Below, piece after piece: positions 20,919 through 46,279 of a stretch of DNA of 64,000 nucleotides (the stretch's first letter is position 1; each line of letters begins with the position of its first letter). This DNA comes from Candidatus Zixiibacteriota bacterium (GTDB lineage Bacteria; Zixibacteria; MSB-5A5; WJJR01). The notes under the pieces were generated by a model, which was given only the letters and a program-made list of their open reading frames with translations, was not told the origin of the DNA and did no database searches. The stretch spans positions 342-64,341 of the forward strand of contig JBFMFQ010000001.1 in the NCBI GenBank assembly GCA_040752075.1, given 5' to 3'. Position numbers and translations under genes: made by a program.

Positions 20919-23900
20919 ATGGACCGCCATCTCGCTTCGGCCAGTCATATCATCAAGGCGGGCGCGCGTCTTGCCACGATTGCCGCTATCCTGCTCCTTT
21001 TGTCTTCCCGCTTGGTCGGTGCACAAGAGACAGCCGAACCGCTGATTCTCGAAAGGGCCGATTCGTCGGAAGTGATTCAATCGGCTGCGGGCAGCGAATA
21101 CCACCTGTTCGGAAACGTCCTGTTCACGCAAGGCGAAACGCGCCTGACCAGCGACCGCGCTGTCTGGATTCAGGAAACAGGGGAGATTGAATTCGAGGGA
21201 CAAGTCGAGATCACGCAGCCCGACCGGTTTCTGCGAGCCGATCACGTCTGGTACCGGCGCGAGACACGATCGTTCCTCGCCCTGGGGGATGTCCTGGTCG
21301 AGGACACGGCGCAAAGCTTCTCCCTCAAATCGGAGCGCGCGCGGTTCGACCGGCGTCGCGAGACGGCGCGTGCCGATTCACTGCCGGCGATGCGCTGGGA
21401 TTTCTACCTCGACTCGGCCAGCCAAACCATCATCACCGCCGACACCCTGCTCTTCAACCGCTCGCTGCGCCAGGGGATTGGAATCGGCACGGTCCGAATC
21501 TACAAAGGCGACTGGTATGCGGAAGGAGAGTACGGCGAAAGCTGGCCCGATTCCGGACGCGCGTTCCTGACCGGGACACCCAGGGCCACGGGACTGGGCG
21601 GAGATATCGCCGGAGACACGCTTGTTCTGACATTCCGCGAGAACAAAGTGGAGCGGGTGCAGGCCATCGGGCGCGCCAATGGCGTTTACCGGGACTCCAC
21701 CGGGGAAACAGCAGGAACAAACAGGATTCGCGGGCAATCCGCCGACTTCTTCCTCCGCAATGACACCCTTCGTGCCATCCGTGTCGTCGGCGAAGCATAC
21801 ACCAACAACGAACCCAGCGATACCGTGTCCGGGCATAACCAGGCCTCCGGCGACTCTCTGTGGATGCGTTTCGAGGATGGACGTCTCCGGACCGTCACAA
21901 TCTCGGGCGGCGCACGCGGGACCTACCGGGCGGCGAGCGAGACCGGCGCGGGCCGCGAGGACACTGTTCAGTACAAAGGCGCTGAGATCGTCTTTACGCC
22001 GGACTCGAACCGGATCGACATCGTCAACGAATCGCAGCTTCAGTACGGCCGCGTTGTGCTCGATGCCGGCCGCATTTCGTACTGGACCGACTCGCGCAAT
22101 CTCGTGGCCCGCCCGGTGGAAGCGCCGACCGATTCCGCAAAGGAACTCCAGCGGCCTCATCTGGCCGACGGCGAGCAAATCGTCATTGGCGATACCCTGA
22201 CTTACAACATCGATTCCCGCCGCGGGCGTATCCGCGGCTCCCGCACGGAATTCGAGGGCGGATTCTACCGCGGGGATGATTTCAAGAAGTACACGGAGGA
22301 TGTCTTCTTCGTGGCCGACGGGATCTACACCACCTGCGACCTCGAGGAGCCGCACTTCCGTTTCGAAAGCGACGACATGGAGATCCTGCGTGACGACAAG
22401 GTCATCGCGCGTCCCGTCGTCCTGAAGATCGGCGAGCTGCCCGTGGCAATCCTGCCGTTCTACGTGTTCCCGATCAAGCGGGGGAGGCACTCGGGCTTTC
22501 TGCCGATCCGTTTCGGGAACTTTGACCGGGGAAACCGGTTCATCTCCAACGTCGGGTACTACTGGGCGGCATCCGACTATTGGGATGTCGAAGGGGCGCT
22601 CGACTTCAATGAAGAGTCCGGCCTGAATCTTCGATCAACGTTTAACTACGCGAAGCGATACCTCTACACGGGATCACTCTCCGGGTCGTACGCACGCGAG
22701 TCCCGGTTTACCAGCGCGGGACGGTCGCGCTCCACGGTCTGGACCCTGACCGGGAATCACAACCAGACGCTTTCGCCGACCGCAACGCTGGCGGGTTACA
22801 TGAACTTCATCTCCGACAAGAGCTACTACGACAACTACACCTACGACCCCAACGACCGCCGGCTACGGACAATCAGTTCGCGGTTGAATCTCAACAAGCG
22901 GTTTGCATGGGGGGCATCGTTGACCGCCGCCCTCGACGCGACCGAGAATCTCGACACCGAAACACGAACGCAGACTCTTCCGCAAGTGTCTCTGACCCTG
23001 CCAAGCCAGCGTCTGCTCAAGCCGGACTCCGGGCAGACCGCACGCTGGTATCACCAGGGGTACGTCTCCATGGGGTCGAGCTTTCGTCATTACTACAACC
23101 GGGTGCCCAAGTCCGGCGACACCACCGGCGCATTCGACGAGCGTCGGTACATGACCATGGACCACCGCGCGGGGATCAGTTTCCCGCAGACGGTGCTCAA
23201 GCACATCACGGTCTCGCCGGCGGCATCCCTGCAGGAGACCTGGTACTACGTCTTCCGTACACCGCTGGCCGTGGCCAATGGGGTGCCTGTCGAAGACCCC
23301 GCCCGCCGTCTGTCCGGGTCGCTCGGGGTCGGGTCCAACACCAATCTCTATGGGTTCTTAAACCCCCGGCTCTTCGGGCTCACGACCATCCGCCACACGC
23401 TCACACCAAGTGTCAGTTATTCCTTCACGCCGGCCATTTCGCAAAACAACGAAATCCGTTCCTTCACCGGCGCCGGCGGCGGGTCATCGCGACGCGCCCA
23501 GTCACTGTCCTTCGGGCTGGGGAACGTGTTCGATGCAAAGCTGGGAGAGGGGGAGACCGAACGAAGAGTCTCCCTCTTTAATGCGAGCCTTGGCGCCAGC
23601 TACGACCTCGAGAAATCGGAAGGCGGGTGGTCCCTTCTAAGCGGATCGGCGCGCACCAACTTGGCCCAGCGACTTGAGTTGTCCACCAACGCCACCTGGG
23701 ATCTTTACAACCAGACCACGGGCGACCTCCAATGGACCAATCCCCGGCTGTTGAACTTCGGCATCAGCGCCGGGATGAATCTCAAGGGCGAGGCCTCGGC
23801 GCTGACATCCGTGACCGAGCTGCGCGAGCATGCCAATGACACCCTCTTCTCGTCAGATCAGATTCCCTTCAACATCGGTTTGTCCTATCGGTACGACGAG

Positions 23901-24191
23901 TCCCGTGGGACATTCAGCGCCTACAAAACACACTGGATCAGCACACGCATCGACTTCGAGCCCACCAAGAACTGGACGGCCTCCATTCAGAATCGGTACG
24001 ATCTGGCAAATCACAAGATCACGGATCAGACCTTTGAGGTGACCCGCGACCTGCATTGCTGGTCGGCGCAATTTGTATGGCGGCCAGGCGGATCCGGGCA
24101 GGGGTATTACTTCCGCATCGGCGTGAAGGACATCCCCGACATCAAGATCGAACGCTCGGAGAGCGGACTGCGCGGGGCGATCTGGCGCTGA
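20919..24191 (+). CDS. lptD: LPS-assembly protein LptD/OstA family, unusually long (1090 aa) with an extended N-terminal OstA-like repeat region
   Basis: Signal peptide. N-terminal YHLFGNVLFTQGETRLTSDRAVW OstA/LptA-like beta-jellyroll segments, repeated about three times. Long C-terminal beta-barrel with alternating hydrophobics. Confidence 0.65.
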   Translation: MDRHLASASHIIKAGARLATIAAILLLLSSRLVGAQETAEPLILERADSSEVIQSAAGSEYHLFGNVLFTQGETRLTSDRAVWIQETGEIEFEGQVEITQPDRFLRADHVWYRRETRSFLALGDVLVEDTAQSFSLKSERARFDRRRETARADSLPAMRWDFYLDSASQTIITADTLLFNRSLRQGIGIGTVRIYKGDWYAEGEYGESWPDSGRAFLTGTPRATGLGGDIAGDTLVLTFRENKVERVQAIGRANGVYRDSTGETAGTNRIRGQSADFFLRNDTLRAIRVVGEAYTNNEPSDTVSGHNQASGDSLWMRFEDGRLRTVTISGGARGTYRAASETGAGREDTVQYKGAEIVFTPDSNRIDIVNESQLQYGRVVLDAGRISYWTDSRNLVARPVEAPTDSAKELQRPHLADGEQIVIGDTLTYNIDSRRGRIRGSRTEFEGGFYRGDDFKKYTEDVFFVADGIYTTCDLEEPHFRFESDDMEILRDDKVIARPVVLKIGELPVAILPFYVFPIKRGRHSGFLPIRFGNFDRGNRFISNVGYYWAASDYWDVEGALDFNEESGLNLRSTFNYAKRYLYTGSLSGSYARESRFTSAGRSRSTVWTLTGNHNQTLSPTATLAGYMNFISDKSYYDNYTYDPNDRRLRTISSRLNLNKRFAWGASLTAALDATENLDTETRTQTLPQVSLTLPSQRLLKPDSGQTARWYHQGYVSMGSSFRHYYNRVPKSGDTTGAFDERRYMTMDHRAGISFPQTVLKHITVSPAASLQETWYYVFRTPLAVANGVPVEDPARRLSGSLGVGSNTNLYGFLNPRLFGLTTIRHTLTPSVSYSFTPAISQNNEIRSFTGAGGGSSRRAQSLSFGLGNVFDAKLGEGETERRVSLFNASLGASYDLEKSEGGWSLLSGSARTNLAQRLELSTNATWDLYNQTTGDLQWTNPRLLNFGISAGMNLKGEASALTSVTELREHANDTLFSSDQIPFNIGLSYRYDESRGTFSAYKTHWISTRIDFEPTKNWTASIQNRYDLANHKITDQTFEVTRDLHCWSAQFVWRPGGSGQGYYFRIGVKDIPDIKIERSESGLRGAIWR

Positions 24192-31194: not shown

Positions 31195-32013
31195 GTGACC
31201 GGGCCTTCGACTCTCAAACGATTCTCATGCGCTTTACTGCTTCCGTTGCTCGGGATGGCGGTGTTCGCGTGCGCGGGCAAGACACCCCCGGTGGTGCTGA
31301 GCGCCCAGGATGGGTACACCGAAGCTCACGCGCTCTACGAAGCGGGCAAGTGGGAAAAGGCGCGCCTGGCTTTCGAACAGGTGGTCTTCAACCATCCGGG
31401 CAGTGCTCTGGTCGATTCGGCCCAGTACTTCCTCGGCATGTGCTACTTCAAGATGGAGGACCCGATCCTCGCAGCGGCCGAGTTCCAGCGGGTGCGCACC
31501 CAGTATCCGGCCAGCCCGCTGGTGGATGACGCCGACATCATGCGCTGCCGTTCGCTGCTTCTGTCCTCGCCATCGCACACCGGGCTTGATCAGGAGCCGA
31601 CGCGCGAAGCCGTCAACGAGCTCAGGTTGTTCCAGGACAATCACCCGTTCTCGGAGTTTCTGCCGGCGGCGGATTCGCTCCTGAAGGTTGCGTACGGACG
31701 GCTGTCCACGAAGGATTTCAAGACGGGAGTGCTTTACCAAAAGCTGGGCCGTTACGAGGCCGCACGCGTCTACCTTCAGGAGATGATCGACCGCTATCCG
31801 GAATCGCCTCTGGTGCCGGACGCGCTCTACCGCCTCGGCGAGGGACAGCGCCGCCAGGACTCGCTGGCAAGCGCGATTGAGTATTACGAGAAACTGATTT
31901 ACACATTCCCCGACCACGAGCGCACGGGAGACGCCCGCAAGCGCGTGGCCCGGCTGGCGCGCCAGCGCGCGGTGGAAGCGGCCGACAGCAGCGCCGACAC
32001 ATCGGGAGAATGA
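31195..32013 (+). CDS. bamD: Outer membrane protein assembly factor BamD-like lipoprotein (TPR)
   Basis: Signal plus Cys (MAVFACAG). TPR-like helical repeats. YxxGxxYF-type pattern (AQYFLGMCYFKMEDP). GTG start. Confidence 0.55.
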   Translation: MTGPSTLKRFSCALLLPLLGMAVFACAGKTPPVVLSAQDGYTEAHALYEAGKWEKARLAFEQVVFNHPGSALVDSAQYFLGMCYFKMEDPILAAAEFQRVRTQYPASPLVDDADIMRCRSLLLSSPSHTGLDQEPTREAVNELRLFQDNHPFSEFLPAADSLLKVAYGRLSTKDFKTGVLYQKLGRYEAARVYLQEMIDRYPESPLVPDALYRLGEGQRRQDSLASAIEYYEKLIYTFPDHERTGDARKRVARLARQRAVEAADSSADTSGE

Positions 32014-32017
32014 ACAA

Positions 32018-32599
32018 GTGGGCGCGCGCCGTCTCGGGATCCTCGGGGGGACCTTCGATCCGGTTCACCACGGGCACCTCCTTTTGGCGCTTCACGCCCG
32101 CGAACAACTTGCCTGCCGCGATATTCTGCTGATTCCAAACGCGCACTCCCCGTTTAAGGCGTCGGGGCCCAAGGCATCATTCAACGACCGGATGGCGATG
32201 ATCCACCTGGCCATCGAGGGGACCAGGGGGCTCGCCTGTTCCGATATCGAGGGCAAGCGCGGGGGTGTGTCCTACATGATCGACACGCTCCATGAGCTCC
32301 GCGCGCTTCATTCCCAAGCCGAGTTTGTATTGATCCTGGGAGGCGATGCCTATTGCGATCTTCCCTCATGGCGTGATTCGGCCGACATCCGGACATTGGC
32401 TCGAATCGCCGTCGTCGCCCGCGGCGGGGAATCCCCGGCGCTGGCGTCTTCTACCGATGAAGTCATCCAAATGCCGCGGTTTGACATCTCCGCGTCTGAC
32501 ATCCGCGCCCGGGTCCGGGCGGGTCGCCTGATCGACTTCCTGACGCCGGCGCCGGTCGCAAAGTACATCATCGATCACGGTCTTTATCGCACCACCTGA
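32018..32599 (+). CDS. nadD: Nicotinate-nucleotide adenylyltransferase
   Basis: GILGGTFDPVHHGH (HxGH). Around 190 aa. GTG start 5 nt after the bamD stop. Confidence 0.85.
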   Translation: MGARRLGILGGTFDPVHHGHLLLALHAREQLACRDILLIPNAHSPFKASGPKASFNDRMAMIHLAIEGTRGLACSDIEGKRGGVSYMIDTLHELRALHSQAEFVLILGGDAYCDLPSWRDSADIRTLARIAVVARGGESPALASSTDEVIQMPRFDISASDIRARVRAGRLIDFLTPAPVAKYIIDHGLYRTT

Positions 32600-32618
32600 C
32601 ATCCGCACCGGGGCGCCC

Positions 32619-32648
32619 TTGTTTTCTCTCGCGGGGGTTTGTTATAAT
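32619..32648 (+). promoter_or_regulatory. Candidate sigma70-type promoter (TTGTTT-N18-TATAAT) for the DUF2064-like gene
   Basis: Perfect TATAAT at 32643-32648 in a high-GC background. TTGTTT at 32619-32624. GAGG RBS and ATG 32667 follow. Confidence 0.4.
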
Positions 32649-32666
32649 CCGGGCGACGAGGTGCCC

Positions 32667-33425
32667 ATGCCGACCAAAGATGTCGTCATTGTTCAGATGC
32701 GCAATCCACCGGGGAAAGAAGAACCCTTCCCGGTATTGCGTGTGTTCGATGACGCGCAGATGCTCAAGTTGAAACGCGCCTTCTTCGAGGACACCATTCG
32801 CCAGGTTGCCGAGGTGCGCGGTGTGGACATCAAGCTGGCGGTTGCGCCGCCGGCGCGATTGTCCTGGGCGCAGGACGCCATCGAGAACCTGACCGCCCGG
32901 TACAACGGCCACGCCACGTACAAATCGCTCGCCGCCAGAACGGAGATCGTTCCGCAGGCGGTCGGACCGCTCGAGGAACGCACCGCGGAGAACATGCAAC
33001 GCTGTTTCGATGAGGGATACGAACGGGTCGTGCTGGTCGGGGGATTCACACCGACACTCGATCCGCAGCGCATCATCGATGCCTTCAAGCACCTGCGCTC
33101 CCATCCGCTGATTCTCGGCCCGACCATCGAAGGCGGCTGCTACCTGATCGGGCTCCGCTCCGATTGCCGGGAGGCAATCGGGCTCGTCTCGGTTGGATCG
33201 GATGTCGCCTACAAGAGATCCACCAGCGCGCTCACGGAAGCCGGGATCACGTGGCAGGAGATTGATCTCTCCTACGACGTTGGGCATCAGGAGGACTTGG
33301 AGTTCATCGTCCGCGAGATCAATCATTGCCGCTACACGGGCGATGAGGACACGGCGCTGAACACCGAGCGCGTGCTCGCCCAGTTCATCAACGAGTCGCC
33401 TGCAGAAGACCCGGCCAGCAACTGA
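32667..33425 (+). CDS. MobA-like/GT-A nucleotidyltransferase-fold protein (DUF2064/TIGR04282-like)
   Basis: N-terminal VVIVQMRNPPGK. Central VLVGGFTPTLDPQ, resembling the GxD.P block of DUF2064/MobA-like proteins. Weak, by-eye assignment. Confidence 0.4.
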   Translation: MPTKDVVIVQMRNPPGKEEPFPVLRVFDDAQMLKLKRAFFEDTIRQVAEVRGVDIKLAVAPPARLSWAQDAIENLTARYNGHATYKSLAARTEIVPQAVGPLEERTAENMQRCFDEGYERVVLVGGFTPTLDPQRIIDAFKHLRSHPLILGPTIEGGCYLIGLRSDCREAIGLVSVGSDVAYKRSTSALTEAGITWQEIDLSYDVGHQEDLEFIVREINHCRYTGDEDTALNTERVLAQFINESPAEDPASN

Positions 33426-33482
33426 TCGTTTCGCGCCGCCGCGTTCCATTCGCCGCTTTCCATCACGAATCCAGGGGGACAC

Positions 33483-34217
33483 ATGCCGACCTATTGGGAA
33501 GACCTGAATTGGGCCGAGTTCCAGAAGCGGGTGCCCGCCGATTTCCGCACCGCCATCATTCCGATCGGGACTGTGGAAGCGCACGGCGTCGGTCCGCTCG
33601 GCACCGACAACTTCATTCCCATCGATGTGGTCAATCAGATCGCCGATGATCTGGCGGCGTTAATCTGCCCGCCCATCCACTACGGCCAGGTCAAAGGCCT
33701 CGCCGGCATCCCGGGGGCCATCGCGGTCGACGAATCGATTTTCGCGACATACTGCGCGTCGGTCTTCGCAAGCATCGCGGAGTGGGGATTCGAACACCTG
33801 ATCGTGATCAATGGCCACGGCGGCAACACCTCTTCACTCAAAAACGCCGCCTGGGAGGTGCACGCCAAGACTGGGATCAAACTGCTCGTGGTGGACTGGT
33901 GGACCCTGGCGGGACCGGTCTGCGAGGCGGTTTACGGACAGGCGGGCGGCCACGCGGGTTGCGACGAAAACGGTTACATGCAGGCCCTCCGCCCCGAGAC
34001 CATTCACCGCGACATGATGAACGACGCCCTGATTTACAACTTCGCCCCCGGTGTTTCGGTCTATCCCTATCCCGGGACGATTCTCACCTACAAGGAAGGC
34101 CAGGGCGCGCCGGACTTCGATGACGCCAAGGCACACCGCTACCGCGAGGGCGCCATCGCCAAAGTCCGGGAATTCTGCCGCCAAACGCTCGATCAGTGGG
34201 ATGCGCTGGGCTACTGA
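33483..34217 (+). CDS. Creatininase-family amidohydrolase
   Basis: IIPIGTVEAHG and VINGHGGN motifs characteristic of creatinine amidohydrolase/MftE/ArfB family. GGGGG RBS before ATG 33483. Confidence 0.75.
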   Translation: MPTYWEDLNWAEFQKRVPADFRTAIIPIGTVEAHGVGPLGTDNFIPIDVVNQIADDLAALICPPIHYGQVKGLAGIPGAIAVDESIFATYCASVFASIAEWGFEHLIVINGHGGNTSSLKNAAWEVHAKTGIKLLVVDWWTLAGPVCEAVYGQAGGHAGCDENGYMQALRPETIHRDMMNDALIYNFAPGVSVYPYPGTILTYKEGQGAPDFDDAKAHRYREGAIAKVREFCRQTLDQWDALGY

Positions 34218-34289
34218 GATGACCCTCCGAGCGTCCAGCGGAACCGCAACGATCACGCACCCGCACTGCATAACGCACAAAAGGCAAAA

Positions 34290-34320
34290 CCCCGGCCACA
34301 ACAGCCGGGGTCACCGTTTT
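34290..34320. terminator. Hairpin terminator between convergent genes (CCCCGGC-N7-GCCGGGG, then TCACCGTTTT)
   Basis: 7-bp GC stem at 34290-34310, followed by a T-tract on the + strand. A-rich (aaaaggcaaaa) on the other side gives a U-tract on the - strand. Confidence 0.5.
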
Positions 34321-34340: not shown

Positions 34341-35678
34341 TCAGACTCGGTAGGCGAACGTCACAAAGACACGCCGGGTTTTGTAATTCGCGAAGTATGT
34401 CCCCGGGTCCATGTCTCGCAGCTCATACCCGCCATGGACATAGGACATGTCGATCGTCATCACACGGTCGATGAGAAATCCCGCACCGAAGGTGAGGTAC
34501 TGCCGCTGGGACTCGACATACCGGTCATCGATGGGGAGCGGATCGAGAAAGTAGCCGGCGCGGACCGTCACACCTTCGTTGGGGAAAATGTACTCGGCGC
34601 CAAGGTTAACGCCGATTACTTCTCTGAGATTGTCCTTCACAAAGCGAAGTTCAGGCGAATTGTTCAGCAGATCGTCGTCATAATCGAAGTCCAACTGGGA
34701 CCAGTCGGAATACTTGAGGTCGAGCGCGGCTAGGAGATTTCCAGTGGCCCCCGAGGCCCCGATTCCGAAGGCAAAGGGGCGCGTCAGGTTGTAGAAGGAA
34801 ACCGTCTCATACGGCAACGATGGGTCGCCATCATACGGCCAGATGTACGGCGAGAAAAGCGTATCTACCGTATGGTCGTAGATGGAAAACTCTTCAGCGT
34901 CGAGATAAGTGGGTGTTTCAATTGTGACGCCGACCGAAAACGCCTGCGAGACCGTGTAGGTTAGCCCCGCCAATGCTGACACTCCGACATAGTCGATGTC
35001 AGTGTTGATGGATTCGCGTTCACTGATTGAATCGCCGAGATTCCCTTGTGCCACTCTTGCTTGCCAGTCGAAGTGGTCACTTCCAGTCAAGATGTTTAGC
35101 GTCAGCCCGGCGGCCAAGCGTGGGGAAATGTCCATCCCCGCACCGGCAGACCACTTCCACATTCCCCCGTGCTCGATCTCACTGCCGGTGTAGACGGAGT
35201 CGATTCCCGGGTAGGTTCGTTCTGAGTATGCACGGTCGAAACTGTTGAAACGGTGGACGCCTGTTGCGAACACGAGTGATCCTCGATACGTTGGGACTGG
35301 GAGCGTCAGGGACAATGAATTGATTCTCGTCTTACGGATGTCGTCTTCGGCATCTCCGGTCCTGTATCTTGAGCCGAGGCTGGTCTCATTCGACTGCCTG
35401 AAGTGGGAAACGCCGCCACGAAACTCAATGCGCCGAACTCGTGCGAGATTCGCCGGGTTATAGATCAGGGCAGAACCGTCGCGGGCCGACACGATTCCCG
35501 TGTTTCCCATCGAAGTCGAGCGTGCGTCACATCCGAAAAAGTCAGACGCAATGGCCCCTTGAAAGAGCGAGACATCTTCCACGTCCTGCGCAACAACGCT
35601 GGATGGTGAAGTGGCGGAGAACAATGTAATCGCCGCGGTGAAACGGGCTGAAATCAGCTTGAATTGCGAAAGACTCAT
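34341..35678 (-). CDS. Outer-membrane hydrophobic-compound channel, FadL/TodX family
   Basis: Signal peptide. ALIYNPANLARV (NPA hatch motif of FadL family). Amphipathic beta-strands. C-terminal FAYRV. GGAG RBS 5 nt before ATG at 35678. Confidence 0.6.
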   Translation of the reverse strand: MSLSQFKLISARFTAAITLFSATSPSSVVAQDVEDVSLFQGAIASDFFGCDARSTSMGNTGIVSARDGSALIYNPANLARVRRIEFRGGVSHFRQSNETSLGSRYRTGDAEDDIRKTRINSLSLTLPVPTYRGSLVFATGVHRFNSFDRAYSERTYPGIDSVYTGSEIEHGGMWKWSAGAGMDISPRLAAGLTLNILTGSDHFDWQARVAQGNLGDSISERESINTDIDYVGVSALAGLTYTVSQAFSVGVTIETPTYLDAEEFSIYDHTVDTLFSPYIWPYDGDPSLPYETVSFYNLTRPFAFGIGASGATGNLLAALDLKYSDWSQLDFDYDDDLLNNSPELRFVKDNLREVIGVNLGAEYIFPNEGVTVRAGYFLDPLPIDDRYVESQRQYLTFGAGFLIDRVMTIDMSYVHGGYELRDMDPGTYFANYKTRRVFVTFAYRV

Positions 35679-35685
35679 GAGGCTC

Positions 35686-36288
35686 CTATGGTTTGATCGT
35701 GCCACGTCTTGGGGCCTTCTTCCCTGGTTCAGGTTTTGGTGAGTTGGCGCCGGCAGTTGAGTCTGCGGGGTTGTTCGATGGGGTAACACGGACTTTGTCA
35801 CCTTGCGGAATCCCCGCGCCGGTTCCCGGTGTGCCGCCGCCTTTGGTGGCACCGGCGCCCGGCGCGATATACGTTCCACCTGTTGAGGGCACCGCCGGTG
35901 CCCCGCCGACGTAGGGGGGAGCCAACGAACCGCGCCGTCCGGCGCGCTCCCCTGGCTCGATGGGATTGCCGTTTTCGTCCACCCGACGGACGTCGTCGTC
36001 ATACCAGTAGTGGTCCCACCACCACGGGTACGCGTAGTAGTAACCCAGGCGCGGGTACTCGAAGTAGTAATCGGGGTACTCCCCGTAGAAGAAGCCGTAA
36101 GGGTAGGAACCGTAATCGGTGTGGCATTCCAGGCACCGGTCACGGTAATACTCCTGGTGATGCGCCGAATTCGAAGCGCCCTCCTCCGACGTGATCGGGT
36201 GCTTCAGGATGGTGTAGCATCCGACCAGCAGGAAGGCGAGCAGCATCGCCAGCGGTGCGGCCCAGCGCAGATGTACGGGTCGTGCCAT
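35686..36288 (-). CDS. Lipoprotein with extreme Tyr/Trp-rich acidic segment, CxxCH motif and Gly/Pro-rich tail
   Basis: Lipobox LLVGC. HHQEYYRDRCLECH followed by YPYGFFYGEYPDYYFEYPRLGYYYAYPWWWDHYWYDDD. Disordered G/P/T-rich C-terminus. Stop is 8 nt upstream of the FadL-like start. Confidence 0.55.
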   Translation of the reverse strand: MARPVHLRWAAPLAMLLAFLLVGCYTILKHPITSEEGASNSAHHQEYYRDRCLECHTDYGSYPYGFFYGEYPDYYFEYPRLGYYYAYPWWWDHYWYDDDVRRVDENGNPIEPGERAGRRGSLAPPYVGGAPAVPSTGGTYIAPGAGATKGGGTPGTGAGIPQGDKVRVTPSNNPADSTAGANSPKPEPGKKAPRRGTIKP

Positions 36289-36478
36289 AACGGGTGACAC
36301 CTCGTTGCCAGTTGATCCCATGGTCCCAGTTGTCCGACAGCACTGCCCTGAACGCTCAGGTTGTCCGACGCGACAACCGTTTTACGCCCAAGCCCGGCAA
36401 TGCGTTGCCTTGTATTTGGATAATCGGCAGTTCACCCCCTCGGGTGACCGCCTGCAAGTCGTTGTCGCTGGCCATCCG

Positions 36479-37464: not shown

Positions 37465-38349
37465 TTAAGGCAGCATCGAACGGAGGTCTCGTTCAACCGC
37501 GCGGCGGTAGTCGGCCTTTAATGTCTCGAAAACCCGCAACGCCCGGGCGGTCAGGCGCAGTCTTTTGCTCCCCAGCCGGCGAGCCAGCCGCAGTCCGCGC
37601 ACAGACGACGTCAAGAATACCCCATCCGCCGTTTCAAGCGACCGGAGTGTCAGGCCGCCGGTCCGTACAGGAATGCCCCGCTCGTGGGCGGCGTCCAGGA
37701 TTACTTGTCGCACCACGCCGGCCAGTGCGCCATCCCTGAGGGAGGGGGTACGCAGCGTGCCGTTTTCAATGGCGAACACCGTCGCCTGCGCGCCATCCGC
37801 AATACGGCCGCGCGAATTGACCACGATCGCATCGTCGCATCCCTCCGCGGCGGCCATCTCCGATGCGAACACATTCGGGAAGTACGCCAGGGTCTTGCAG
37901 CCGATCATCGGATTGATGGGATCAATGCGCCATGGCGCAACCCAGACATTTCCTGCCTGCACCAAGGGGTTGGTTTGCGGCCTGACAATGATGACTCTTC
38001 TCGGCTTGAAGTCTGGTGCGAATCCGCGAGTGGTGATCAGGTTTGCCGCGCCCTCGCCGGCTCCGCTGCGGACAATCAACCGCTTGAGATGCCGGCGCCA
38101 CCAGTTTGTGTCGCCCATGTCGATCTGGAGGCGCTCTCCGCCCGCCCGCATCCGGTCCAGGTGCTGCTGCAGGAACAGGGCGTGACCACGGTGAATCCGG
38201 ATTGTCTCAAACAACCCCCAGCCAAATCGGAATCCCCAGTCTTCAATTGAAATGGCGGGGCGATCAGGGGACAGGATTCGCCCGTCGATTGACGCGAAAT
38301 CGCGCGACTTAACGGGCTTCGACCGTGGGTTTTTCGTGGATGATGTCAT
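37465..38349 (-). CDS. pabC: Aminodeoxychorismate lyase (class IV aminotransferase fold)
   Basis: Fold-type IV PLP enzyme pattern (WGFRFGWGLFETIRIH ... GCKTLAYFPNVFA). Immediately downstream of and overlapping pabB. Start ATG 38349 overlaps pabB by about 41 nt. Confidence 0.6.
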   Translation of the reverse strand: MTSSTKNPRSKPVKSRDFASIDGRILSPDRPAISIEDWGFRFGWGLFETIRIHRGHALFLQQHLDRMRAGGERLQIDMGDTNWWRRHLKRLIVRSGAGEGAANLITTRGFAPDFKPRRVIIVRPQTNPLVQAGNVWVAPWRIDPINPMIGCKTLAYFPNVFASEMAAAEGCDDAIVVNSRGRIADGAQATVFAIENGTLRTPSLRDGALAGVVRQVILDAAHERGIPVRTGGLTLRSLETADGVFLTSSVRGLRLARRLGSKRLRLTARALRVFETLKADYRRAVERDLRSMLP

Positions 38350-39667
38350 GCGTCGTTGTCTCGATCCCGCTCGGCAACAATGAATCCAACATCGGCGCGA
38401 TTTTGACCAGCGATTCCTCGTACTCGGCGTCACAATCCGAGTCGGCCACGATTCCGCCGCCGCCGTGGACACGGAGCGTGGGTCCGATTTTCACCGCTGT
38501 GCGAATCGCCACGGAAAAGTCGGCGTCCCCGGCCGCATTCACCCAGCCGATGGCGCCGCAATAGACCCCGCGCGGGGTGGACTCCACCTCGTTGAGAATC
38601 TCGACGGAACGGCGCTTTGGCGCCCCGGTGATGGACCCGCAGGGGTGCATGGCCCGCATCACATCATGCCACTGCAATCCCGGAGCGAGCCGGGCGCGAA
38701 CGATTGATTCGAGGTGCCAGACCGATGCATAGGCGCGCGGCCGTCTGAGGGCCGCGACACGAACACTGCCGATCTCGGCGATCGTCCCCAGATCGTTTCG
38801 CTCAAGATCCGTGATCATCAGCAATTCGGCCCGGTCCTTCCCACTTTCGAGCAGGGCTCTGAGATTCGCCCTGTCGGACAATGGGTCATTTCCACGCGCC
38901 CGGGTGCCCTTGATGGGACGGGACTCCACGACGTTCCCGGATTTTCGCCAGAATCGTTCCGGCGAACATGAGATCACTTCGATTCCGGGGTAAGCCGCAT
39001 CGATTGATCCATCGCGCATGCGACCGGGAGGGAATCGGAGATAGGCCGAAAACGGCGCCGGATTGGTCCTCGCGAGACGTTCGTAGAGCTCCCGGCCCGG
39101 GGTGGTCGTTTCGGATTCGAATGCCTGCGTGAGATTGGCCTGGTAGATGTCCCCTTCGGCGATGTGCTCTTTGATTTTCCGCACGGCATCGCGGTAATCC
39201 GATTTTGCCACCAGCGGTTTCCATCCATACAGCGATGGGTGCCTGCAGGGAGCCTTAATCCCAGTGTGTCGCGCCGAACTCGCGGGGGAGACGGTTTCAA
39301 GCTGGCCGAAGAGCAGGAATTGGATCGGGGGATATTCCGCTCGTCTTGGTGAGCGCAGCCCAAGCATCGCATGCCCGAATTCATACGACACGTACCCGAT
39401 CATTCCCCCTTGGGGAAACTCACCGGCCACGTTCTCCCGAAGCCGTTCGAGCGCGTCAAGGGTGTCACCGTTTCCTGATGCCCCAGTGCCATCTTGCCAT
39501 CTGACGGCCCAGTGGGCATCATCCGCCGCGAATCGCCCCAGCAAACCCCGCCCGATAACATGGCCTACCCCCAGTCCGGGCCGGCGCCAGCGGCTCTCCA
39601 GGATGGCCATGCCACCAATTCCGTCTTGGAGGGGCGATGGAGGAGCGAAGGTGGATTCGAACATCAT
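38309..39667 (-). CDS. pabB: Aminodeoxychorismate synthase component I (TrpE/PabB family)
   Basis: Chorismate-binding motifs GDIYQANLTQAF, PFSAYLRF, GSITGAPKRRS, GGGIVADSDCDAEYEE. Paired with pabC-like. Start ATG 39667 or GTG 39784. Confidence 0.65.
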   Translation of the reverse strand: MMFESTFAPPSPLQDGIGGMAILESRWRRPGLGVGHVIGRGLLGRFAADDAHWAVRWQDGTGASGNGDTLDALERLRENVAGEFPQGGMIGYVSYEFGHAMLGLRSPRRAEYPPIQFLLFGQLETVSPASSARHTGIKAPCRHPSLYGWKPLVAKSDYRDAVRKIKEHIAEGDIYQANLTQAFESETTTPGRELYERLARTNPAPFSAYLRFPPGRMRDGSIDAAYPGIEVISCSPERFWRKSGNVVESRPIKGTRARGNDPLSDRANLRALLESGKDRAELLMITDLERNDLGTIAEIGSVRVAALRRPRAYASVWHLESIVRARLAPGLQWHDVMRAMHPCGSITGAPKRRSVEILNEVESTPRGVYCGAIGWVNAAGDADFSVAIRTAVKIGPTLRVHGGGGIVADSDCDAEYEESLVKIAPMLDSLLPSGIETTTHDIIHEKPTVEAR

Positions 39668-39874
39668 GGCGGGTGAGAAACATCGGAATTTCCCCCCGAT
39701 CAAGGTGTATTGAGGACAGGAGGGCCGACAGCCGCGATTCCGGTCCGAAGTTGTCAGGGATCGGCTCCGGCGCCGATCCGACACTGAAATCTATCTAAAT
39801 GTATTGCAACGACTTATGAAATTGGCGCAATTTGACTCTAAACCCGCATCCGGGTTACCCGTATCAAATAGCAC

Positions 39875-39900
39875 GGAACGTCACGCCCACTCGATTGTAT
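39875..39900 (+). promoter_or_regulatory. Candidate ECF-type promoter (GGAAC -35 element) in AT-rich divergent region upstream of ECF sigma gene
   Basis: GGAAC at 39875-39879, followed 16 nt later by TGTATT. Region 39785-39947 is conspicuously AT-rich relative to the window. Confidence 0.25.
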
Positions 39901-39947
39901 TAAGGCGTGAGAGCTATTCGTTGCGACCGAACAAGGGAGCTACAATA

Positions 39948-40544
39948 ATGGACTCACAAAAAGCCATCGACCATGCCCTGATGCGTCAGGTGCAGCAGGA
40001 TGACTTTGAGGCCTTTGAAAAGCTCGTTGACCGATACAAGGGCCGGCTGGTCAATGTCATCACGCGTATGCTCAATGACCAGAGCGAAGCAGAGGATCTT
40101 GTCCAAGAGACGTTCCTGCGGGTTTGGACGCACCGTCAGGATTACGACTTCTCCTACTGCCTGTCGACGTGGATTTACACCATTGCGCTGAATCTGGCCA
40201 AAAACGAGCTGCGCAAGCACCGGAAGTTCAAATTCTTCAACCTGATCGAGATGGCGGAAAAGGGGATTGAAATCCCCGACCCCAAGATGGGCCCATCGGC
40301 CTTGGGGCACATGCTTGATCAGGCCATCACAACCCTTCCGGTGAAGTACAAGACGGCATTCTTGTTGCGCGATGTCGAGCAGATGTCCTACGAGGAAGTC
40401 GCGCAGATTCTTGGTGTCCCGCTGGGGACCGTGAAGTCCCGTGTGAATCGGGCCAGGGCGGTCCTGAAAGACCAACTCAAACCGAAACTGGAGCAATCAC
40501 GTGCGCTGTCGCAAGGCTCGCTGGTTCCTGTCCGCACGATGTGA
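39948..40544 (+). CDS. ECF RNA polymerase sigma factor (sigma-70 family, sigma-E-like)
   Basis: Region 2 (DLVQETFLRVWTHRQDYD) and region 4 HTH (SYEEVAQILGVPLGTVKSRVNRAR). GGAG RBS before ATG 39948. Confidence 0.85.
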   Translation: MDSQKAIDHALMRQVQQDDFEAFEKLVDRYKGRLVNVITRMLNDQSEAEDLVQETFLRVWTHRQDYDFSYCLSTWIYTIALNLAKNELRKHRKFKFFNLIEMAEKGIEIPDPKMGPSALGHMLDQAITTLPVKYKTAFLLRDVEQMSYEEVAQILGVPLGTVKSRVNRARAVLKDQLKPKLEQSRALSQGSLVPVRTM

Positions 40545-41106
40545 CGGGACTCTTTCCGAGCGCGAGCGTCTGCGCTTGGAAGACCATCTGAAGGGCTGCG
40601 CCGATTGCCGGCGGGAGGCGTTTTACTTCTCGGAGATTGCCGCCTGCGCGGGGCGTCTTGAGAAGGCTCCGGTCCGCCCGGACTTCAATGTTCGTCTCCG
40701 CGCCGCCATACGCCGGTCCGAGGTCGCCGCATCGACTCCCAAGCCGTGGTACCGTCCAACCCTTCAGCCTCTGTTCCGCCCGGTACTGGCTTTTGGCCTT
40801 CTGGTTCTGACCTTGGGCGGGGGAGTCACGGGTTACGTCCTGACGCATAACAGCGAATCCGGCCCAATGGACTCCACGGAGGCCATCGTGGAATGGCAAC
40901 CAGTGATCCAACCGGGAATGACCCCGGTGGGGGATATGACCGCCGAAGACCAGCGTGTCCGGCAGTACATCGACACGAACGGCGCCCTGAGTGATTTTGT
41001 GATCGAGACCTACAGCGTGGAGGATCCGAACACGGAAAAGCATCTGCCGCAATACCTTAATCCGGTTGTCCCAGCGGAGCAGATGGCCCGTCAAGTGAGC
41101 TATTGA
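40501..41106 (+). CDS. Anti-sigma factor with ZAS zinc-binding motif, single TM
   Basis: HLKGCADC (HxxxCxxC). One TM (VLAFGLLVLTLGGGV). Overlaps the sigma gene end. GTG start. Confidence 0.65.
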   Translation: MRCRKARWFLSARCDGTLSERERLRLEDHLKGCADCRREAFYFSEIAACAGRLEKAPVRPDFNVRLRAAIRRSEVAASTPKPWYRPTLQPLFRPVLAFGLLVLTLGGGVTGYVLTHNSESGPMDSTEAIVEWQPVIQPGMTPVGDMTAEDQRVRQYIDTNGALSDFVIETYSVEDPNTEKHLPQYLNPVVPAEQMARQVSY

Positions 41107-42797: not shown

Positions 42798-45700
42798 GTG
42801 CGTAAGAGGTTTAAAATTCCACTCCTGACGCTGGTCCTGCTCGTTGTCGGCGCCGGCGTTATCCTGCTTCTGCTCATCAAGACCGATTGGCTGCCGCGTC
42901 GGGCCTCCGGCCTGATCAACGAGGCATTGGAGCACACCGCCGATCTGCACATTGAGATCGGCGACTTCGGCGGCAATCTCCTCTCCGGCATGGCCGCTGA
43001 GAATGTGGTCGTCACGCGCGCCGATGCCCCCGCCGACACGGTGGTTGTCATCGCACGGGTGTCGGCGGAGTATGACATACGCGATCTCTGGAATCGCCGC
43101 TGGGTCATCCGGTCGGCGGTCGTCGATTCACCAAAGGTGTACCTTCCGCAAGATTCGCTCCGCCAGTTCTTCGCCTCATTCGCGAGGAAGGACACGGCCG
43201 CATCCCGGCAGACCAGGCCGCTGGTGCTTTTCGACTTCGACCTCCACGACTTCGTCATCCAGGGTGGTCAGGCGTACCGGCGCAGCACATCATCGATCAT
43301 GGTCGATTCGTTCAACTTGCAACTTTCGGCGGCGAGCCATGGCAGTGTGATCGCTGCCCGACTGCGGGGCGCGGAGGCCGTCATCGATGGTTACGGACGG
43401 GTCTCGGCCAGCGGGCTTCTGCACTCCGAAAGCGGCGCCTGGAAAGTCGACTCAGTCGAAGTGTCGACATCCCGATCGCGCATCCACGCGTCCGGATCCA
43501 TGCGGGAATGGGTGCTTCGGACAGACCCGCTGGATTTGGCCGACGCCGCCTTCATCACAGGCGGGATCAAGGGAAGTGTCGAATTCGACGGTACGATCAA
43601 ACCGGACACATCGCTGACCCAATGGTCGATTCAGGGCCGCACCTCGGGTGTCCTCGAAGGTTACACGCTCGAGAGCGTCGCAATTCAAGTTGAGGTGCGC
43701 GGCCGGCAGATCGCCATCGACTCCGTTGCCGGCCGTGTGTCCGGCGCCCTTTGGAATGGTTCGGGTGCGTTCAATCTGGGAGTGAAACCGGAACGGTACA
43801 GCTACGGGGGTTCAGTCCGCGGCTTCGATCTCAACCGGTGGGCGGACGGTACTTTCTCCACGGACCTCAACGGCGCGATTGCGGTCGAGGGCGAAGGTCT
43901 CACCGATGAAACTCTGTCGTTGGATCTTGATGTTCAGTTGGCGCCAAGCCGCTTTGATAACGTTCGAATCGACTCGGCATTTGGACGTCTCACCGTGACC
44001 ACACGCGATGCGATATTCGACGACGACTTCCAGATGTATACCAACGCAACAGAGCTGACCGGCGGCGGGAGCATCTCGTATGCGGACTCCATCGACATGT
44101 TCGCCAACGTGTACTTTGAAGACCTCCGACGCTGGGACTCCCTCGTCTTTGTTGACTCGCTGGCGGGCCGGGCGTACGCGTACATTTACCTGTCCGGCTT
44201 GACCGAGGATCCGGATCTCGCCGGACGTCTTCTGTCCGATTCGCTTCGGTTGTTCGACATGCGCAGTTCATCGGTCGAGGGATGGTTTTATGCTCCGAAC
44301 TTTCTCTCGCGCCCTTCCGGGGATGTGAACTTCCGATTTGGCGCCAGCGATGCGTGGGGATGGGCGGTGGATTCGGTCGTCTTGCGCGCGAGCCTCCTGG
44401 ATCGCCGTGTGGGGATAGACTCGATGGCGGTGTTCACACCCGCCCTGACCGCCCAGGGACGCGGCTGGTTGGACTGGTCCCATGGCACCATTCCTGTCCG
44501 ACTTCTGCCGCTCACGGCCGTGTGGGAAGACCAAATCTTCCGGGCCACCGACACGATCGCTGTTAGCGTCGATTCCCTCGGGTTCGAGTTTTCTGAGGTG
44601 GCGGTGGAAAGCGGACTGGGGGAAGTTGCGGCCAGTGGGCGTGTCAACTACGATGAGTCCACTGATCTCGATTTCTCCATTGAGGGAGTCCGCATATCCA
44701 GCATCGCCCGTCGGCTGTTCCCCAATCTCAGGGCCGATGGCCTGATTGCGGCCTCGGGCCACCTTGAAGGGACGCTGGACAATCCGATCCTCACCCTTGA
44801 CGGGACAATTCGCGAACTTGAGTACGATGGCATTCCCGCCGGCGATCTTTCCGGCGCGGTCGCCTATCGCGACAATCGCCTGCGAACAGATGAGTTGCAG
44901 CTCATGCACCCGAACTACCGTGCGGTGCTCGCGGGCGAATTCCCTGTTTCACTCGACTTAAGCGGCGGAGGGGCACATGTTCTCGAAGAGCCGATGTCGG
45001 GGCGTCTCAGTGTCTCCGGAGAGGCGCTTGAGCTGGCGGCGCAACTGCTGCCCGAGACCGTGGAGTCCGTGAGCGGCCCATTCTCGATTTATGCCACGCT
45101 CGGCGGCACGCCCCGCTCCCCTCTGGTCACCGGAGACGCGCATCTCCGGAACGGTACGATCAAGGCGATCGAGATCGCCAATCCCATCGAGAATTTGCAG
45201 GTCGATGTCCTGCTCAGCCAGGATACAATCAAAATCGAGCGGGCGGAGGGCATCATCAAGCAGGGCCGGCAGACCGGAAAAGTCTCCGTGACCGGCGACA
45301 TGAAGATTCTCTCGTACAACCTCTTCGACTACGACCTGAAAGTCACCGGCCGCGATGTGCCCGCCCGCTTCGAGTTCGAGGATTTCTACGTCGAAACCGA
45401 CTTCGACCTGAATGTCAACGGCAGTGATCCACCGCTGGTGAGCGGGACCATTCAGCCCACCCGCGTCGAAGACCGCATGCCATTCGAGGATGAGGACACC
45501 CCGGAGGTGATCGATCCCGACGGGTGGGACTGGGACTTCACCGTGGAAATGCCGGGAAACTACTGGATTCACAACGAGCAGATTGATGCGGAGTTGTCTG
45601 CAGACCTGAGGATTTTGCGCGAGGAGGGACGGCCGACTTACCTGGGGCAGGCGGAGATCATTCGCGGCAAGGTATACCTCTTCGACAAGATCGGTCGCAT

Positions 45701-46274
45701 CCAGTCGGGCATTCTGACTTTCGACAACGTGAACGGGCCCGACCCGAGCCTGGATATCGATGTCCTCTTCGTTATCCGCCAGCCCAGGCCCGACCAGGCG
45801 CGTCAGAGCGAGGGGTCGCAGTCGCTCGACGTAAACCTGCATGTCGGCGGGCGCGCCTCCGAGCCCCTCATCCAGCCCGAACCGCCCTACACGGAGCAGG
45901 ATGTGCTCCTGCTCTTGACCGCGAACACCAATTTCGGCGGCGGGGAGCCGACCTCGGCATCCGATCCCTGGGCCGACCGGCTGAAGTTTGCGGCCACGGG
46001 CTTGCTGTTCTCCGAAGTGCAGCGGGTGGCCGCCCGCAAACTCGGGCTGGAGACTCTCGAGATCAGTTCGGAGGGTGATCCGACCGATGCGGAAATCACC
46101 GTGGGCCGGTACTTCTCGCCGCATCTCTACCTGTATGGTTCCAGCCAGGTCGACGCGGGCGGGGGGCAGGAAGTGGGGTTTGAGTACCGCTTCAACCGTC
46201 ATTTGTTTCTGGAAGGCAACCGTGACAGTGAGAATCTTTACCGGCTCAACCTGCATTTCAACTGGGACTATTGA
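42798..46274 (+). CDS. tamB: Translocation and assembly module protein TamB (AsmA-like, DUF490 C-terminus)
   Basis: N-terminal TM anchor. Over 1100-aa beta-rich repeat protein. C-terminal DUF490-like end (...YRFNRHLFLEGNRDSENLYRLNLHFNWDY). Confidence 0.7.
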   Translation: MRKRFKIPLLTLVLLVVGAGVILLLLIKTDWLPRRASGLINEALEHTADLHIEIGDFGGNLLSGMAAENVVVTRADAPADTVVVIARVSAEYDIRDLWNRRWVIRSAVVDSPKVYLPQDSLRQFFASFARKDTAASRQTRPLVLFDFDLHDFVIQGGQAYRRSTSSIMVDSFNLQLSAASHGSVIAARLRGAEAVIDGYGRVSASGLLHSESGAWKVDSVEVSTSRSRIHASGSMREWVLRTDPLDLADAAFITGGIKGSVEFDGTIKPDTSLTQWSIQGRTSGVLEGYTLESVAIQVEVRGRQIAIDSVAGRVSGALWNGSGAFNLGVKPERYSYGGSVRGFDLNRWADGTFSTDLNGAIAVEGEGLTDETLSLDLDVQLAPSRFDNVRIDSAFGRLTVTTRDAIFDDDFQMYTNATELTGGGSISYADSIDMFANVYFEDLRRWDSLVFVDSLAGRAYAYIYLSGLTEDPDLAGRLLSDSLRLFDMRSSSVEGWFYAPNFLSRPSGDVNFRFGASDAWGWAVDSVVLRASLLDRRVGIDSMAVFTPALTAQGRGWLDWSHGTIPVRLLPLTAVWEDQIFRATDTIAVSVDSLGFEFSEVAVESGLGEVAASGRVNYDESTDLDFSIEGVRISSIARRLFPNLRADGLIAASGHLEGTLDNPILTLDGTIRELEYDGIPAGDLSGAVAYRDNRLRTDELQLMHPNYRAVLAGEFPVSLDLSGGGAHVLEEPMSGRLSVSGEALELAAQLLPETVESVSGPFSIYATLGGTPRSPLVTGDAHLRNGTIKAIEIANPIENLQVDVLLSQDTIKIERAEGIIKQGRQTGKVSVTGDMKILSYNLFDYDLKVTGRDVPARFEFEDFYVETDFDLNVNGSDPPLVSGTIQPTRVEDRMPFEDEDTPEVIDPDGWDWDFTVEMPGNYWIHNEQIDAELSADLRILREEGRPTYLGQAEIIRGKVYLFDKIGRIQSGILTFDNVNGPDPSLDIDVLFVIRQPRPDQARQSEGSQSLDVNLHVGGRASEPLIQPEPPYTEQDVLLLLTANTNFGGGEPTSASDPWADRLKFAATGLLFSEVQRVAARKLGLETLEISSEGDPTDAEITVGRYFSPHLYLYGSSQVDAGGGQEVGFEYRFNRHLFLEGNRDSENLYRLNLHFNWDY

Positions 46275-46279
46275 GAGTG

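Follow-up and report, generated by a model that had tools for sequence, protein, structure and literature searches.

Why would a bacterium keep, immediately ahead of a gene for an apparently intact creatininase-family hydrolase, a gene whose product retains the fold of a nucleotidyltransferase but has lost the catalytic residues of its family? The question is raised by a gene pair in a 64,000-nucleotide (nt) stretch, here called the window, of a Candidatus Zixiibacteriota metagenome-assembled genome (MAG; contig JBFMFQ010000001.1). Gene 1 (32667 to 33425, + strand; 252 amino acids [aa], ATG start; NCBI accession no. MEW5873574.1) encodes a degenerate DUF2064/CofC-fold protein of an RDIN subfamily described below, and gene 2 (33483 to 34217, + strand; 244 aa; accession no. 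MEW5873575.1) encodes a predicted creatininase-family binuclear-metal amidohydrolase. The answer that we favor, tentatively and at somewhat less than even probability, is that gene 2 would specify a formamidase resembling BrbF and ArfB and gene 1 a noncatalytic nucleotide-binding partner, the two forming a self-contained operon.

The product of gene 2 matches the Pfam Creatininase model (PF02633) at 135.8 bits against a gathering threshold of 31.3, which places it in the family to which a preliminary description of the locus had assigned it, and the motifs named in that description (VLVGGFTPTLDP, EAHG, and NGHGGN) were all found in the sequence. Its AlphaFold2 model (predicted local distance difference test [pLDDT], 95.8) has the fold of the Pseudomonas putida creatininase (EC 3.5.2.10; PDB 1J2T/3A6J; template modeling score, ∼0.8), and six residues that are invariant in 78/78 orthologues (E32, H34, D42, H112, H157, and E162) align with E34, H36, D45, H120, H178, and E183 of that enzyme; Yoshimoto and colleagues are said to have identified H178 in 2004 as the catalytic residue and the other five as metal ligands. 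Despite the shared fold and active-site residues, identity to the P. putida enzyme is only ∼21%, and its NGH-Y121-E122-N segment reads NGH-G-G-N in gene 2. Gene 2 also falls well below the cutoffs of the named subfamilies (TIGR04448 creatininase, 73 versus 235 bits; IolN NF041098, 70.1 versus 245 bits; MftE TIGR03964, 66.4 versus 172 bits). Judged from its sequence, the protein is not a creatininase, an MftE, or an IolN and is best described as a predicted intact binuclear-metal amidohydrolase.

Gene 1 has fared differently. It belongs to DUF2064 (PF09837; 60.9 bits over residues 43 to 165, gathering threshold 25.8), as had been proposed, but it fails the cutoffs of both TIGR04282 (73.9 bits versus 134; 77.1 bits in the large Zixibacteria clade) and the CofC model TIGR03552 (22.1 bits versus 105). 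Its closest relative by sequence and by structure is the canonical DUF2064/TIGR04282 protein 3CGX (94 bits; Foldseek E value, 1.9e-12), and an AlphaFold2 model (pLDDT, 79) shows a MobA/CofC-type nucleotidyltransferase (GT-A) fold, for which the best Foldseek matches were 3CGX and the FbiD and CofC structures (6BWG, 7P97, and 2I5E), followed by KdsB, IspD, TarI, and GlmU. Among 32 diverse canonical DUF2064 proteins, K13 and R15 (in a K-T-R-L loop), D119 (GxD-S-P), D147 (DGGYY), and D196 and D198 (DVD) are invariant. Profile alignment equates D119, D196, and D198 with D116, D188, and D190 of FbiD, a three-aspartate motif that holds two Mg2+ ions along with the phosphate of the substrate (PMC6450877). 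The corresponding residues in the window are F127, D204, and G206, and the replaced catalytic residues comprise F127, T130, E155, and G206. Across 81 Zixibacteria orthologues the first aspartate has become R (65 sequences), Y (14), or F (2) and is never D, the next acidic position is threonine in all 81, and DVD has become (A/C/D)V(E/S/G). The triphosphate loop, a basic N-terminal K.P..G.VKTRL segment in DUF2064, reads RNPPGKEEPFPVLRV in the window and QEPxEDGSxMDFG in the large clade; none of the 81 orthologues' basic residues is conserved there, and residues 15 to 27 of the model have a pLDDT below 50.

With its three-aspartate Mg2+ motif lost, no K-T-R-L loop, and scores short of the TIGR04282 and CofC cutoffs, gene 1 is unlikely to be a transferase; it is probably not a working nucleotidyltransferase and bears the signature of a pseudoenzyme or a protein of changed activity. 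The preliminary description, which had called it nucleotidyltransferase-like, thus stands with respect to the MobA-like fold and probably not with respect to activity. The gene is under strong purifying selection, however, and by this measure is not decaying: ratios of nonsynonymous to synonymous substitution rates in unsaturated pairs are 0.02 to 0.15 (0.02 to 0.08 for gene 2), 29 columns are invariant across both Zixibacteria clades, and the canonical DUF2064 positions D42-T43, G.R105, G117-Y118, and GPT.EG.Y are retained. A match inside gene 1 to the Rfam family sR32, an archaeal C/D-box RNA (33314 to 33362, + strand; 19.3 bits versus a gathering score of 40; E = 0.03), was set aside as a chance match.

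How closely the two genes belong together was examined by scanning one genome per GTDB species, which yielded 113 relatives; 80 loci were kept, and all 80 are in Zixibacteria-type MAGs, some of them automatically labeled with other names (e.g., "uncultured Ignavibacteriales"). Gene 2 follows gene 1 immediately in 78/78 species-level Zixibacteria loci with enough downstream sequence, and the two loci in which no creatininase gene was seen are contig ends, so that the pairing noted in the preliminary description is a conserved one. In 58 of 83 loci, gene 2 starts between −4 and +9 nt from the stop codon of gene 1, a spacing suggestive of translational coupling. An apparent DUF2064-creatininase fusion in one locus (L024) proved to be two separate open reading frames (ORFs), the tblastn match having read through a stop codon.

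The genes around the pair are less constant. In the window, gene 1 is preceded after 67 nt by nadD (32018 to 32599; NCBIfam NF000840, 153.7 bits versus a cutoff of 150), and close relatives (56 to 70% identity) share the entire order ftsK-lolA-rimO-SLT-hypothetical-bamD-nadD-gene 1-gene 2, which by itself shows only synteny. Even for distant gene 2 orthologues (∼40% identity), the adjacent upstream gene is DUF2064-like, but the pair there is preceded by genes for thioredoxin, a rhomboid protein, a response-regulator-like protein, and CcdA/DsbD, with no nadD. Upstream nadD and bamD are limited to the window's own clade (16 of 89 loci, namely, L001 to L006 and L010 to L022 less duplicates), and nadD does not adjoin the pair in the larger Zixibacteria clade or in nondegenerate relatives. 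Being clade specific, this adjacency provides no evidence for a step related to nicotinamide adenine dinucleotide (NAD) or nicotinic acid mononucleotide (NaMN), and the hint of such a step that had earlier been drawn from it does not hold.

The pair also appears to be transcribed on its own. Upstream of gene 1 in the window are a −35 box, TTGTTT (32619 to 32624, + strand), an 18-nt spacer, and an extended −10 box, TGtTATAAT (32640 to 32648, + strand), 19 nt ahead of the gene, followed by a Shine-Dalgarno-like GAGG (32658 to 32661, + strand) that lies 5 nt before the ATG and is matched in position by GAGG or AGGAG in relatives. The frequency of TATAAT alone does not make this element significant (3 occurrences in the window versus 2.3 expected; TGNTATAAT occurs a single time versus 0.16 expected), and conservation across loci was needed to judge it. 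An automated promoter scan of the window did not call the site at 32619 to 32648, because its −35 box matches at 3 of 6 positions. We sought the pattern TTGNNN-N16-19-TANNNT upstream of gene 1 in 81 nonredundant loci and in shuffled versions of the same regions, and it was present in 80 of the 81 loci compared with 16% of the shuffles, in agreement with the promoter proposed in the preliminary description. The consensus over the 81 loci is TTGACT-N17-TATATT, the −10 box being TATATT or TATACT and the spacing 17 nt in 55 loci. When the sequences upstream of gene 1 from 14 loci of the nadD clade are aligned, the only conserved blocks are cTTG(T/A)T and TgtTATA(C/A)T, with TAT invariant, and the aligned −35 box of the large clade reads cTTGAC(T/G/A). 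It is this phylogenetic footprint that makes the element credible. In its hexamers, its 16- to 19-nt spacing, and its conserved position, the element corresponds to a promoter-like sequence of the sigma-70 type, and gene 1 and gene 2 therefore appear to form their own transcription unit.

The −35 box is surrounded by a stable hairpin (5 or more pairs, −8 kcal/mol or lower) in 31 of 80 loci, and a T-run follows into the −10 box, so that a terminator of the upstream gene appears to overlap the promoter-like element. One example lies at approximately 5120 to 5165 of locus L008 (GCCCTCCGA-cccTTGACTcgc-TCGGAGGGC-TTTTTTATATT; −21.8 kcal/mol), with others in L036, L039, L009, and elsewhere; in the window, the structure is weak (32615 to 32638).

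These observations bear on the view taken in the preliminary description, in which both proteins are active and catalyze consecutive steps of nucleotide or cofactor modification or salvage linked to nadD, gene 1 activating a phospho-metabolite with a nucleoside triphosphate (NTP). Such a view would be in keeping with the nucleotidyltransferase fold, with the retention in gene 1 of D42, R105, G117-Y118, and GPT.EG.Y, and with nadD lying directly upstream in the window and its clade. We nevertheless consider it very unlikely, given that gene 1 has neither a three-aspartate Mg2+ site nor a KTRL loop and scores under the TIGR04282 and CofC cutoffs, that neither the larger Zixibacteria clade nor any nondegenerate relative has nadD beside the pair, and that a conserved promoter-like element separates nadD from gene 1.

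An exhaustive hidden Markov model (HMM) search of the library used recovered ∼6,350 DUF2064 representatives (clustered at 50%), of which ∼11 clusters are close to gene 1. Motif tables define this subfamily by a C-terminal (V/I)RDINxxRxxGDExxxxxTE motif, and all of its members with enough flanking sequence adjoin a creatininase gene, compared with 0/57 canonical DUF2064 loci. The degenerate Zixibacteria proteins fall into three groups: Z1, which includes the window (GG(F/Y)TPT), Z2 (GSRTPT), and Z3 ((D/G)CVTPT). Two uncultured lineages, A1 and A2, have the creatininase neighbor and keep all of the canonical DUF2064 motifs, scoring 173.8 and 155.3 bits, respectively, against the TIGR04282 cutoff of 134. 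A sister group, B (182.5 bits), occupies the same syntenic slot with a DUF2064 protein that has no adjacent creatininase (L092, 5001 to 5726; L093, 5001 to 5732; L094, 5001 to 5726). Its C-terminal motif is I(D/E)xLRLAG..HTE(K/R)C, and it lies in a trx-CoA_binding-OsmC-rhomboid-response regulator-DsbD context, followed by a Ser/Thr kinase or a Cys/Met pyridoxal phosphate enzyme.

Long-range synteny around the locus in Zixibacteria genomes, together with the group B DUF2064 gene, which holds this position with no creatininase beside it, might indicate that the adjacency of gene 1 and gene 2 is historical and that the proteins are merely cotranscribed while serving unrelated processes. The pair has outlasted the replacement of its upstream genes (bamD-nadD versus trx-rhomboid-ccdA/dsbD), however, and it recurs in A1 and A2, which are not of the Zixibacteria type; its junctions are tight or overlapping in the 58 of 83 loci mentioned above, and the coincidence of RDIN motif and creatininase neighbor is perfect. 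Purely historical adjacency therefore strikes us as highly improbable.

Apart from family membership, the sole hint of function comes from lineage A1, found in soil or sediment metagenomes of the Joint Genome Institute. On 5 distinct contigs, the DUF2064 and creatininase genes are followed by a gene for RibA (GTP cyclohydrolase II), forming a three-gene operon with overlapping stop and start codons (1-nt overlaps; L090, 5001 to 7152, and also L095 to L098 and L100), ahead of which lies an extracytoplasmic function (ECF) sigma factor/zf-HC2 anti-sigma gene pair. The third gene encodes a stand-alone RibA, recognized as such by the RibA models and with the usual catalytic tyrosine within KIKAYALQ. 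A Streptomyces RibA with a Tyr-to-Met change releases FAPy, but the tyrosine in KIKAYALQ rules out that the A1 protein is such a variant.

The linkage to RibA fits the precedent of BrbF, and it is for this reason that we rank a BrbF/ArfB-like formamidase or deacylase first. BrbF (SMc02977 of Sinorhizobium meliloti and Bab2_0247 of Brucella abortus) was annotated as a creatininase homologue and proved to be an AFRPP formamidase, which removes the formyl group from AFRPP, a ring-opened GTP derivative, to give the riboflavin precursor DARoPP (PMC9478397). It contacts other riboflavin enzymes, and the same study could not find the enzyme that supplies AFRPP (PMC9478397). Gene 2 is of the same Pfam family and has an intact metal site; its A1 orthologue shares an operon with RibA, and BrbF, too, works in contact with partner proteins. 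The conserved neighbors differ, those of BrbF being MarR and CobW genes and that of gene 2 a DUF2064 gene. Archaeal ArfB (MJ0116) is likewise an AFRPP formamidase serving riboflavin biosynthesis. The comparison with ArfB-type deformylases made in the preliminary description is thus an apt one in view of the A1 RibA coupling and of BrbF's activity as an AFRPP formamidase, and the relatives of the pair point to ring-opened guanine nucleotides, i.e., early riboflavin chemistry, and not to NAD.

We accordingly picture gene 1 and gene 2 as a bicistronic operon that would be transcribed from its own sigma-70-type promoter, with gene 2 as the putative catalyst, a cytoplasmic creatininase-family amidohydrolase with two metal ions that would most likely act on a nucleotide-like substrate, cleaving off a formyl or some other small acyl group in the way that BrbF and ArfB deformylate AFRPP. 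The ancestor of gene 1 would have been an active DUF2064 (CofC/FbiD-like) NTP-transferase that already adjoined the hydrolase gene. In Zixibacteria, loss of the Mg2+ site and the triphosphate loop would have abolished nucleotide transfer, and the protein may persist as a noncatalytic partner that probably binds a ligand or else docks to the hydrolase through its family-specific C-terminal helices. We infer the class of substrate and the physical partnership of the two proteins from these comparisons, and the noncatalytic status of gene 1 from its motif losses.

Several points weigh against this interpretation. Gene 2 is likened to BrbF and ArfB through its family and the A1 gene context, and its scores place it equally far from creatininase, IolN, and MftE; moreover, distant BrbF homologues did not complement the mutant (PMC9478397), and membership in the family therefore does not predict formamidase activity. 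Linkage to RibA is seen in a single narrow lineage, with ∼80% identity among its contigs, and the A1 enzyme with its normal tyrosine should not release AFRPP; a search of the window and the Zixibacteria loci examined recovered no GTP cyclohydrolase gene. Group B has no adjacent hydrolase and includes a copy that is itself degenerate (TNCNPT in L092), so gene 1-type proteins can exist without one. A mirror-tree comparison of the two genes gave a raw correlation of 0.82, which is not above that of control genes, and a partial correlation of 0.46, which a control pair equaled. Finally, IspD-type nucleotidyltransferases work without aspartate ligands from the protein, and loss of activity in gene 1 is thus likely but unproven.

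A different role is suggested by the company that the pair keeps outside the window's clade. There it lies beside genes for thioredoxin, a CoA-binding protein, OsmC, an AhpD-like CMD protein, CcdA/DsbD, nitroreductase, and ECF sigma and zf-HC2 proteins, in several independently rearranged lineages, and genes for an ECF sigma factor and a zf-HC2 anti-sigma factor are present in the window as well (39804 to 41106). AFRPP is, in addition, the 5′-monophosphate of FapyG. The pair might thus belong to a thiol-redox or oxidative-stress module, either following the logic of the glycosyltransferase and deacetylase of bacillithiol or mycothiol synthesis or repairing oxidatively ring-opened guanine nucleotides (FapyG to the normal riboflavin precursor), and it is the recurring thiol-redox neighbors that keep a stress or damage-repair variant alive. 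We regard it as unlikely, since these neighbors may be inherited synteny (the window's clade exchanged them for bamD and nadD and kept the pair), the promoter-like element resembles sigma-70 rather than ECF promoters, no cysteine ligase or similar gene lies near the pair, and gene 1 has no DxD-type site.

Taken one step further, the formamidase reading would make the pair a new route by which ring-opened guanine nucleotides (AFRPP/FapyGMP, of enzymatic origin or from oxidative damage) are fed into DARoPP, a dead guanylyltransferase-fold protein capturing the nucleotide and handing it to a BrbF-like formamidase. This more specific proposal is decidedly unlikely as it stands; if it were true, the active ancestral form of gene 1 seen in A1 and A2 would be a candidate for the missing AFRPP-supplying enzyme of bacteria.

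Other known systems resemble the pair in part. FbiD and CofC, the phosphoenolpyruvate or 2-phospho-L-lactate guanylyltransferases of F420 synthesis (6BWG, 7P97, and 2I5E), share the fold of gene 1 (Foldseek E values, 2e-9 to 5e-8), and the CofC HMM gives a weak match to it, but D116, D188, and D190 of FbiD are F127, D204, and G206 in gene 1, and no cofD, cofE, or fbiC lies nearby. Canonical DUF2064 proteins have D42-T43, G.R105, G117-Y118, and GPT.(D/E)GG.Y in common with gene 1, which differs from them in the absence of K-T-R-L, GSD, and DVD, in an extra C-terminal RDIN..R..GDE..TE helix pair, and in a creatininase-family neighbor in place of radical-SAM or GT2 genes. TIGR04282 bears the NCBI name "arsenosugar biosynthesis glycosyltransferase" as a hypothetical equivalog, and we know of no biochemical test of this canonical family. 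Its genomic association is with radical-SAM/selenodomain and GT2 (TIGR04283) genes; within 10 kb of the pair, we found one radical-SAM protein, a RimO-like protein (UPF0004 plus TRAM), and no GT2 gene. In mycofactocin systems, a creatininase-family hydrolase (the peptidase MftE) and a GT-A-type protein (MftF) are likewise encoded together, but gene 2 scores 66 bits against the MftE cutoff of 172, MftF is a true GT2 and not CofC-like, and neither mftA, mftB, mftC, or mftD nor a radical-SAM partner was found near the pair. A PADLOC scan for defense systems returned zero matches.

The anatomy of the operon can be completed from the sequence. An alternative TTG start for gene 1 at 32619 is present in the ORF list, but this start overlaps the promoter, and we therefore favor the ATG at 32667, which gives the 252-aa form of MEW5873574.1. 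The spacer between gene 1 and gene 2 is 57 nt in the window and holds a Shine-Dalgarno-like AGGGGGA (33473 to 33479, + strand) ahead of gene 2; a promoter and terminator scan of the interval between the genes found none. Downstream, a convergent FadL-like outer membrane gene ends at 34341 (− strand), and a G+C-rich hairpin between the two (34288 to 34312) is a likely terminator. The terminator scan assigns it to the − strand and hence to the FadL-like gene; on the + strand a TTTT run lies 5 nt past the stem, so that the operon might plausibly use the hairpin too, on weaker grounds.

Farther out, the FadL/Toluene_X-like ORF (34341 to 36143, − strand) is listed at 600 aa with a low-complexity N terminus rich in Thr, Pro, and Arg; because its orthologues are 408 to 461 aa long, the true start probably lies within the ORF, and the extra N-terminal part runs into a conserved hypothetical gene of ∼210 aa (35686 to 36321, − strand). 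A PabC-like class IV aminotransferase (37465 to 38472, − strand) and a PabB-like chorismate-binding enzyme (38309 to 39784, − strand) are convergent to the pair, and such genes recur 2 to 4 kb downstream in both Zixibacteria clades; the two ORFs overlap by 164 nt, and the PabC-like start probably lies further downstream for that reason. The ECF sigma gene (39804 to 40544) and its zf-HC2 (ZAS-type) anti-sigma gene (40501 to 41106) lie 5.6 kb downstream of gene 2, and pairs of this kind accompany the DUF2064-creatininase genes of every lineage examined; they are found directly upstream in A1 and in B and a few kilobases downstream in Zixibacteria. The region from 19666 to 48178 is rich in envelope biogenesis genes, including those for LptD (20919 to 24191), FtsK, a LolA-like protein, a RimO-like protein, an SLT protein, BamD (31195 to 32013), a DegP-like protease, TamB (42798 to 46274), and an Omp85/TamA-like protein (46271 to 48178).

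The gene 1-gene 2 system is an undescribed variant built on two known families; our literature searches returned no paper naming DUF2064, PF09837, or TIGR04282 and nothing relevant on Zixibacteria with creatinine or riboflavin. In the genomes compared here, the two-gene operon is a signature of Zixibacteria, a phylum of which we know no cultured member, and it offers a marker for the whole phylum together with a promoter consensus, TTGACT-N17-TATATT, that is well supported there. The locus also amounts to a natural experiment, in which one protein, in an apparently active and in a pseudoenzyme version, is in each case tied to the same hydrolase family. Lastly, whether gene 2 acts as an AFRPP formamidase bears on the question of which enzyme, in bacteria that make riboflavin, supplies the AFRPP on which BrbF-type formamidases act.

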